Shown here: positions 2,997 through 3,170 of the stretch, piece by piece
How the letters are laid out: every line of letters begins with the position of its first letter
Numbering within the stretch: position 1 is the first letter of the stretch
NCBI GenBank assembly: GCA_964383745.1
Contig: CAYLHV010000010.1
Location: forward strand, 234-64,233
From: an uncultured Rickettsiales bacterium
GTDB lineage: Bacteria; Pseudomonadota; Alphaproteobacteria; Rickettsiales; CAYLHV01
DNA: 64,000 bases
Reading direction: 5' to 3'
The notes under the pieces: model-generated
What the model was told of the DNA's origin: nothing
Database searches by the model: none
Seen by the model: the letters and a program-made list of their open reading frames with translations, nothing else
Made by a program: the position numbers and the translations under genes

Positions 2997-3170
2997 TGGA
3001 CTATAAATTTACAGGGTCATTTTATTAAATTCTCCAATTTATATCTTCCGTATTTGCTGTAAAATTTGTGATAATCCAGAGTTATTTTTTCTATGGAATG
3101 TGACGTAACACTAGATTGCCGCGCCTTTGGCTCGCAATGACGGAGGTTGTTGAATTTTTAATTATATTTA
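2997..3170 (+). repeat. composite intergenic repeat 'R' (~180 bp), full copy 1
   Basis: TGGACTATAAATTTACAGGGTCATT...TTTGCTGTAAAATTTGTGATAATCCAGAGTTATTTTT.CTATGGAATGT...GATTGCCGCGCCTTTGGCTCGCAATGACGGAGGTTGTTGAATTTTTAATTA. The same string recurs at 9173 and 59621, with partial copies at 45381, 47486 and 11715. Confidence 0.85.

Follow-up and report, generated by a model that had tools for sequence, protein, structure and literature searches.

Rickettsial palindromic elements (RPEs) are known for inserting in frame into genes. [quoted passage not shown] Units of the superfamily are defined by an unpaired CGTC (or TGTC/CCTC) end, an 8-9-bp stem starting with complementary A/T, a 4-5-nt loop, and a CCA-like 3-nt tail. 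Head-to-head dimers with the tags outside predominate, and the units lie past ORFs in unidirectional and convergent spacers and are prevalent in alphaproteobacteria. No dedicated transposase was found for them and no RAYT was found flanked by CGTC units, extinction of the CGTC machinery was raised as one hypothesis, and many REPs were argued from their placement to be transcribed (PMC3733652). In Neisseria and Wolbachia, hairpins of this family are cut by a tiny GIY-YIG ssDNA nuclease. The Neisseria enzyme, SsnA, is a 94-aa single-domain GIY-YIG protein (cd10448) that binds the NTS hairpin (CGTCATTCCCGCGMAVGCGGGAATCYRG) only as ssDNA and not as RNA, is specific for the tagged strand, and makes its cut a few nucleotides upstream (5') (Chenal et al. 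2025, Nat Commun 16:2388; PMC11893778). The ssn genes lie between NTS copies (NTS-ssn-NTS), an ssn gene is encoded by 81% of the genomes that have >200 such motifs, and symbionts are enriched among motif-rich species (PMC11893778). Another point of comparison is the Coxiella burnetii element QMITE2, which carries a REP and exists in coexisting full and small versions (Wachter et al. 2018; PMC5896051).

The window analyzed here, a 64-kb stretch of DNA from an uncultured Rickettsiales bacterium, has a G+C content of 37.9%, is ~88% coding by a crude gene map, and is rich in ankyrin-repeat (ANK) genes. Its YchF protein is ~65% identical to alphaproteobacterial proteins, a tRNA-Ser (anticodon TGA) at 15215-15304 is the only Rfam or ARAGORN match in it, and no close relative of the window was present among the loci that we fetched. 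The original prediction was of a dispersed repeat family built on a palindromic core, and our analysis confirms that this observation is real, while the interpretation attached to it is partly supported. The string GATTGCCGCGC occurs nine times in the window with at most one mismatch, against 0.56 matches expected by chance, and GCTCGCAATGACG occurs 11 times with at most two mismatches, against 0.87 expected. An nhmmer profile built from the three long copies and run on the window recovered three full copies of ~196 bp (2990-3185, 9166-9360, and 59615-59810), two partial copies of ~118 bp (45378-45494 and 47486-47604), an inverted pair at 36062-36186, further matches at 11735-11805 and 30207-30242, and a weak match at 59077-59117. 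With a covariance model of the cores, the kind of check that the prediction had itself proposed, we found nine strong copies with E <=7e-9 each, all of them where they had first been noticed, as well as a tenth, decayed copy that had been missed. The copies are as follows.

520..570, minus strand: probable internally deleted remnant (AAATTCTCCAGATTCTGGTGCGACTACGGAGGTTGAGAAAAATTT), recognized by eye only; downstream of ORF 167-469, a paralogue of 1850-2932.
2990..3185, minus strand: full composite of ~196 bp (nhmmer E 9e-63, covariance model 51.7 bits, alignment); REP core at 3111-3142 with the CGTC tag on the minus strand; begins 58 nt past the stop of ORF 1850-2932.
9166..9360, minus strand: full composite (nhmmer E 2e-60, covariance model 48.9 bits, upstream homology to the 59.6-kb copy); core at 9276-9307 with a TGTC tag; directly past the small ORF remnant 8954-9169, in the spacer between the convergent ANK genes 6322-8760 (plus strand) and 9506-10774 (minus strand).
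11766..11803, minus strand: single core (covariance model 49.3 bits), 5 nt past the stop of 11805-12401, a minus-strand gene for an RsmD-like methyltransferase (Pfam).
30207..30243, minus strand: single core (covariance model 51.2 bits) between convergent HAD hydrolase (plus strand) and mgtE (minus strand) genes (Pfam).
36080..36182: head-to-head dimer with cores at 36080-36118 (plus strand) and 36144-36182 (minus strand), covariance model 55 bits each; CGTC tags outward, spacer of ~33 nt, between convergent genes 35339-36010 and 36231-37040.
42728..42767, plus strand: decayed copy (covariance model 17.9 bits, E ~0.01; nhmmer E 0.08) reading TGTCACCCGCGAGCCGAAAGTGTGGTAATCTAG and then the spacer-like AGAGGTTATTT; in a convergent spacer, 23 nt past the stop of 42052-42708.
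45378..45494, minus strand: partial copy whose stem foot is a variant (CGTCACCCGCGAGC...) (nhmmer E 3e-22, covariance model 39.8 bits), between divergent RNase PH (minus strand) and ANK (plus strand) genes; the sole copy in a divergent spacer.
47486..47604, minus strand: partial copy of spacer, core, and 3' module (nhmmer E 2e-27, covariance model 49.8 bits); core at 47546-47577; 2 nt past the stop of ANK gene 45586-47484 and upstream of grpE (Pfam).
59079..59113, minus strand: decayed core (covariance model 11.2 bits, E 0.7; nhmmer E 0.05), 7 nt past the stop of ANK gene 57813-59072.
59615..59810, minus strand: full composite (nhmmer E 1e-66, covariance model 47.8 bits, ORFs); core at 59733-59764; encloses the stop codon of the small ORF 59379-59630.

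Four degenerate cores had also been proposed, of which the one at 59085..59112 finds weak support in the models, whereas those at ~520-570, 59150-59200, and 60040-60085 are by-eye resemblances, none of which reaches a statistical threshold with nhmmer or the covariance model in the window. The CGTC tag lies on the minus strand in nine of 11 cores, and GC skew is positive throughout the window; the cores may have an orientation bias relative to replication, in a small sample that includes duplicates.

Read on the minus strand, all nine strong copies share the layout [C/T]GTC-ATTGCGAGC-(3-5 nt loop)-GCGCGGCAAT-CCA(G). The unpaired tag is CGTC in eight of the nine and TGTC in the other, and the tail is likewise CCA in eight and CTA in one. 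The stem is formed by ATTGC(G)AGC pairing with GC(G)C-G-GCAAT, and folding as DNA gives the order A-T, T-A, T-A, G-C, C-G, bulged G, G-C, A·G mismatch, G-C, C-G, so that the palindrome is imperfect by one mismatch and one bulge. The segment between the arms measures 5 nt in seven copies (CAAAG or TGAAA); one copy has 4 nt (TCCA) and another 3 nt (GCA). ViennaRNA closes a 3-nt loop inside this segment. ATGAC is present in eight strong copies and replaced by GTGAC in the copy at 45441, and the translation WIAALSARND is present, in line with the one-frame reading first given for the core. Eight of the cores are near-identical over 30 nt and have unrelated flanks; flanks are likewise unrelated at the cores that adjoin housekeeping genes (rsmD, mgtE, HAD, tenA-like, RNase PH, and grpE).

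A comparison of these units with the CGTC-tagged REP superfamily shows agreement in each textual feature given by PMC3733652 for tag, stem, loop, tail, and intergenic placement at 3' ends, and judged by its sequence the core is a CGTC-tagged REP, a member of a described pan-bacterial family. The likeness covers the CGTC/TGTC tag, a stem of ~9 positions starting with A-T, the short loop and CCA tail, head-to-head dimers with structured spacers (one clear case in the window), the mainly alphaproteobacterial range, and the same types of spacer past ORFs. In contrast to the published units, the stem in the window has a fixed mismatch and a bulge, and the phyla in which its exact variant occurs far outnumber the five reported. 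With a stem of 9 positions and a loop of 5 nt, it would probably fall in sub-family CGTC-3 or -4. [quoted passage not shown] In-frame insertion into genes is, however, the habit of RPEs, whereas the copies in the window are all intergenic with none inside a long gene, a comparison made with RPEs as described in the literature.

All ten loci lie in intergenic DNA, which makes up ~12% of the window under the crude gene map, as originally claimed. Three are in convergent spacers, six in unidirectional spacers (five without the by-eye 520-570 remnant), and one in a divergent spacer, and nine of the ten are downstream of at least one gene, often 2-60 nt from its stop, in keeping with the predicted placement past stop codons or between convergent genes. 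For REPs of E. coli, protection of mRNA from 3' exonucleases has been proposed, and the copies here could by the same reasoning act at the RNA level as 3'-UTR hairpins that terminate transcription or shield the upstream mRNA. Their position just past stop codons suits such a role, as do the transcription of many REPs inferred from the same placement in PMC3733652, the very stable hairpin that the dimer at 36080-36182 would make, and viral contigs in which the core lies between scaffold and capsid genes. The dimer, which had been noted as an inverted pair at 36084/36141, has 44-nt arms that are 98% complementary and a fold of -80.9 kcal/mol (z -16.8). Single cores, by contrast, fold weakly as DNA (-3 to -6 kcal/mol) and no more stably than shuffles (z from -1.5 to +0.5). 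No U-tract abuts the stem, and the T run lies ~17 nt beyond it. None of the cores in 44500-64000, an interval with four strong ones, coincides with a terminator-like call, and one copy sits in a divergent promoter region. A generic hairpin, moreover, would not need near-exact conservation of sequence across phyla, and SsnA does not bind RNA (PMC11893778). We consider a role at the RNA level somewhat unlikely overall, and the suggestion of a terminator or RNA hairpin finds no support in these folds. The weak hairpins, the distant T run, and the lack of a call in 44500-64000 give no support to a canonical intrinsic terminator; a milder role in RNA stability is conceivable, particularly for the dimer.

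The longer copies embed the core in a composite of ~190 bp, in which the core follows a conserved spacer of ~30 nt whose ends are complementary (AATCCAGAGTTAT / ATAACTCTGGGTT). The window contains one clear head-to-head dimer, and the region before the spacer in the long copies may be a decayed REP partner: in two of the three full copies the covariance model matches the left arm, at the place and on the strand expected but at only 8 bits, and its alignment as a decayed REP against shuffles gives P 0.08-0.96, which is not significant. The decayed copy at 42728 has an identical spacer start, in left-arm orientation. Neither the 5' nor the 3' module of the composite has a match in the JGI metagenome and IMG/VR collections, and the composite seems peculiar to this genome or lineage, as was proposed for its 5' extension. 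It would be a lineage-specific longer repeat consisting of an intact right-hand REP, a 30-nt spacer, a weak left-hand partner, and AT-rich flanks.

The first full copy lies within a perfect 14-bp inverted repeat at 2967-2980 / 3236-3249 (AGCTAAGATCATAT / ATATGATCTTAGCT), an arrangement that recalls the REP dimers nested in longer palindromes that have been reported from other species (PMC3733652).

The three full copies are 76-90% alike and end in short inverted repeats (GGACTAT...ATAGTCC) of 7-9 bp, with a perfect 9 bp in the copy at 9172/9350. These features would suit a MITE derived from an autonomous IS, which would transpose as a unit with the REP core as its passenger or target, and the coexistence of full and small versions has a parallel in Coxiella QMITE2 (PMC5896051), a 150-190-bp repeat that contains a REP and whose full-size and small REP-only versions lie mostly in 3' UTRs or intergenic DNA. 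QMITE2, however, has a GTAG REP, 7-11-nt direct repeats at its ends, and IS1111 as target, none of which is seen here. Alignment of the flanks shows no target-site duplication at any of the three full copies, the terminal repeats reach only 7-9 bp, and neither the metagenome nor the viral collections yielded a copy of the composite. Of the three full copies, those at 9.2 kb and 59.6 kb are, in addition, segmental duplicates, since they have in common ~110 bp of extra homology upstream and a paralogous small ORF. We regard a transposing MITE as quite unlikely, and part of the copy number reflects segmental duplication and not transposition.

The paralogous small ORFs (8954-9169 and 59379-59630; …VGYVKFCAEFFLCD…SIVQFLEQ.SEEEK…) lie immediately upstream of the two full composites, and ORF 59379-59630 matches no Pfam family. 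Elsewhere in the window, positions 112-408 and 2608-2904 form a 297-nt direct duplication of 91% identity with a copy or remnant of the element downstream of each half, and ORF 167-469 is paralogous to the 3' part of ORF 1850-2932 (no Pfam match). The composite has multiplied in part through duplication of the 3' ends of accessory or ankyrin genes.

Duplication also accounts for some copies under a different reading, in which the repeats are inert relics whose spread ceased long ago and whose pattern reflects duplication and purifying selection against genic insertions. The decayed copies at 42728, 59079, and ~520 and the hypothesis of extinct CGTC machinery (PMC3733652) accord with it; eight cores that are near-identical over 30 nt despite unrelated flanks do not, and unless it had spread recently or been under selection, a G+C-rich 30-mer would decay fast in a genome of 38% G+C. 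On balance we hold the relic reading to be unlikely.

The core is not confined to this lineage. Among the matches listed, the exact core (GATTGCCGCGC-N3-7-GCTCGCAATGAC) is found in >120 genome stretches of many phyla, including Bacteroidota, Chloroflexota, Bacillota, Patescibacteria, Elusimicrobiota, and beta- and gamma-proteobacteria, with hosts such as Mucilaginibacter, Dehalococcoidia, Rhodoferax, Clostridia, Treponema, Babeliaceae, Rickettsia, and Sphingomonadales, and in 62 IMG/VR viral contigs. Membership of the core in the class of repeats with LAMT and ARND translations stands; that class is not peculiar to amoeba- or arthropod-associated bacteria. Seven related phage contigs from IMG/VR (L127, L134, L136, L144, L147, L155, and L166) carry the exact core between scaffold-like and major-capsid-like genes. 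A search of the literature by DNA strings of the repeat returned primers only, and Rfam, at gathering and E-value thresholds, returned nothing specific, the dimer giving only generic hairpin matches to miRNA models.

A generic detector found 265 units in the fetched loci, with CCA as the commonest tail. Pairs of units in other genomes are head-to-head in 60 cases, tail-to-tail in 13, and head-to-tail in 30, with a median spacer of 22 nt. Conservation of the palindrome had been put forward as a check on the family: the layout is kept in all nine strong copies of the window, and the stem feet are complementary in 209 of 220 units from outside it (the search pattern itself excluded, in loci fetched by that pattern). 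An exact compensating right foot accompanies 47 of 56 non-ATTGC left feet (ATCGC/GCGAT, ACTGC/GCAGT, ATTCC/GGAAT, etc.), and the stem foot covaries across genomes.

Inverted pairs with a short spacer, and an imperfect palindrome whose bulge and mismatch resemble those of Y1 transposase substrates, would also be expected of REPINs, REP pairs mobilised by a RAYT (an IS200-like Y1 transposase). The tag is nevertheless CGTC and not GTAG, no RAYT flanked by CGTC units was found in PMC3733652, and no transposase gene recurs near the core in 182 loci. Screening of the neighborhood of the core (1.5-2.5 kb), in 120 loci and later in 182, gave no other recurrent gene, barring phage structural genes in related phages. 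The gene that these units do flank is a GIY-YIG nuclease, and we consider mobilisation by a RAYT very unlikely.

A search for genes bracketed by units identified at locus L022 a 96-aa GIY-YIG gene between ATTGC-type units with their tags outward; homologues of this gene abound and share 70-80% identity even between distant taxa. GIY-YIG genes of 94-98 aa are flanked in this way by ATTGC-type units at L022, L207, L210, L217, and L218, and in the 8-kb GIY-YIG loci every detected unit adjoins the GIY-YIG gene. In one lineage (L207-L216, ~4001-4285) dprA and topA are the neighbors of the REP-GIY-YIG-REP cassette, and in another (L217-L226, ~4001-4297) the cassette is found inside a type I restriction operon, with hsdS on one side and hsdR on the other. 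Among viral GIY-YIG loci, four of 22 have the cassette, with ATTCC/ATCCC-type units. REP translations (such as LAMT, APRNDG, SLRGAKRRSNP, and CEERSDEAIQ) stand at an end of nine of 13 over-long GIY-YIG homologues, and the GIY-YIG-flanking units align almost base-for-base with the cores in the window. The unit-flanked proteins match only Pfam GIY-YIG and, weakly, UPF0213 in the PDB, while NCBIfam gives only a sub-threshold match to a group I intron endonuclease. In the L217-L226 cassette, the upstream hsdS reading frame continues into the REP. At L088 (4590-4760), in a Bacteroidia MAG, a GIY-YIG gene is followed by tandem copies of another TGTC-tagged palindrome (TGTCACCCTGAGCCTGCCGAAGGGTCG), which suggests that further nuclease-hairpin pairings exist.

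This arrangement closely resembles NTS-ssnA, a published nuclease partner that the original prediction did not name. The layout of Neisseria NTS/dRS3, CGTCATTCCCGCG-MAV-GCGGGAATCYRG, is that of the cores in the window, CGTCATTGCGAGC-loop-GCGCGGCAATCCAG, and a hairpin-gene-hairpin cassette around a ~95-aa gene exists for the ATTGC type in other genomes; both systems, furthermore, are associated with symbionts and with locations beside host-interaction genes. Unlike NTS-ssnA, the window has no ssn gene (no GIY-YIG gene is found in its 64 kb by tblastn). The published SRM search sequence (HGTCWYN(0-2)YYVSBRHN(0-5)WNVSBRGN(0-2)RNCYNB) has zero matches in the window and does match the Neisseria NTS control; the cores miss it at the ATTGC foot, which puts a G at a position where the pattern demands Y. 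This variant escapes the SRM pattern, yet it is extremely widespread and brackets GIY-YIG genes all the same, so that surveys may undercount Ssn systems. A GIY-YIG gene occurs in only two of the 182 loci chosen for the core, a figure that fits a single-copy trans-acting enzyme and is not positive evidence for one.

The explanation that we favor, with moderate confidence, is that the core is a CGTC-tagged REP of the type recognized as ssDNA by Ssn nucleases and that the copies have been seeded and maintained by such an enzyme. The analysis shows the identity of layout, the distribution across phyla, the covariation of the hairpin, the flanking of GIY-YIG genes elsewhere, and the intergenic placement; we infer that an Ssn enzyme acts on the copies in this organism. 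The hairpin unit is 30 nt long and imperfect: an unpaired 5' CGTC precedes a stem that starts A-T/T-A, the loop spans 3-5 nt, and the tail reads CCAG. The Ssn family would comprise single-domain GIY-YIG nucleases of 94-98 aa, each encoded between two outward-facing hairpins, and the enzyme would bind the tagged strand and cut a few nucleotides 5' of the tagged hairpin. The copies here would have been seeded and maintained by an Ssn-type enzyme encoded elsewhere in the genome, now or formerly, and would have accumulated where they do least harm, just past stop codons.

The surroundings of the copies add an association of a different kind. Counting strong or model-supported copies, six of 12 ANK-adjacent spacers have a copy, against three of 42 other spacers (Fisher P ~0.002, in a crude test on observations that are not independent), and the association with ankyrin genes is suggestive. 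This clustering mirrors that of NTS around host-interaction genes in Neisseria. Six of the ANK genes have in common a conserved non-ANK C-terminal segment (…LSLDDAQFALDFVNYDY…; 46672-46746, 47248-47322, 55260-55334, 57501-57575, 58815-58889, and 61963-62037) and appear to be one expanded paralogous effector-like family. Tentatively, and with much less confidence than we have in an Ssn-type partner, we raise the possibility that the ATTGC hairpin belongs to a separate and far wider Ssn nuclease-hairpin pairing, spanning >15 phyla and phage contigs, with copies clustering at effector-like ANK genes.

In conclusion, the core family and the type of its partner enzyme are already known, while the lineage-specific composite, the widespread ATTGC variant beyond the SRM pattern, and the suggestive association with ankyrin genes may be new. 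A repeat that lies behind spurious small ORFs (LAMT, ARNDG, and RHCEE peptides) and assembly breaks gains both a name and a partner known from published biochemistry. Within this genome its copies flag the 3' ends of accessory genes, those with ankyrin repeats among them, and could be markers of, or substrates for, the duplication and turnover of these genes. A separate ATTGC pairing with clustering at ANK genes, if true, would point to control of recombination or gene turnover at symbiont effector loci by a hairpin and an ssDNA nuclease.
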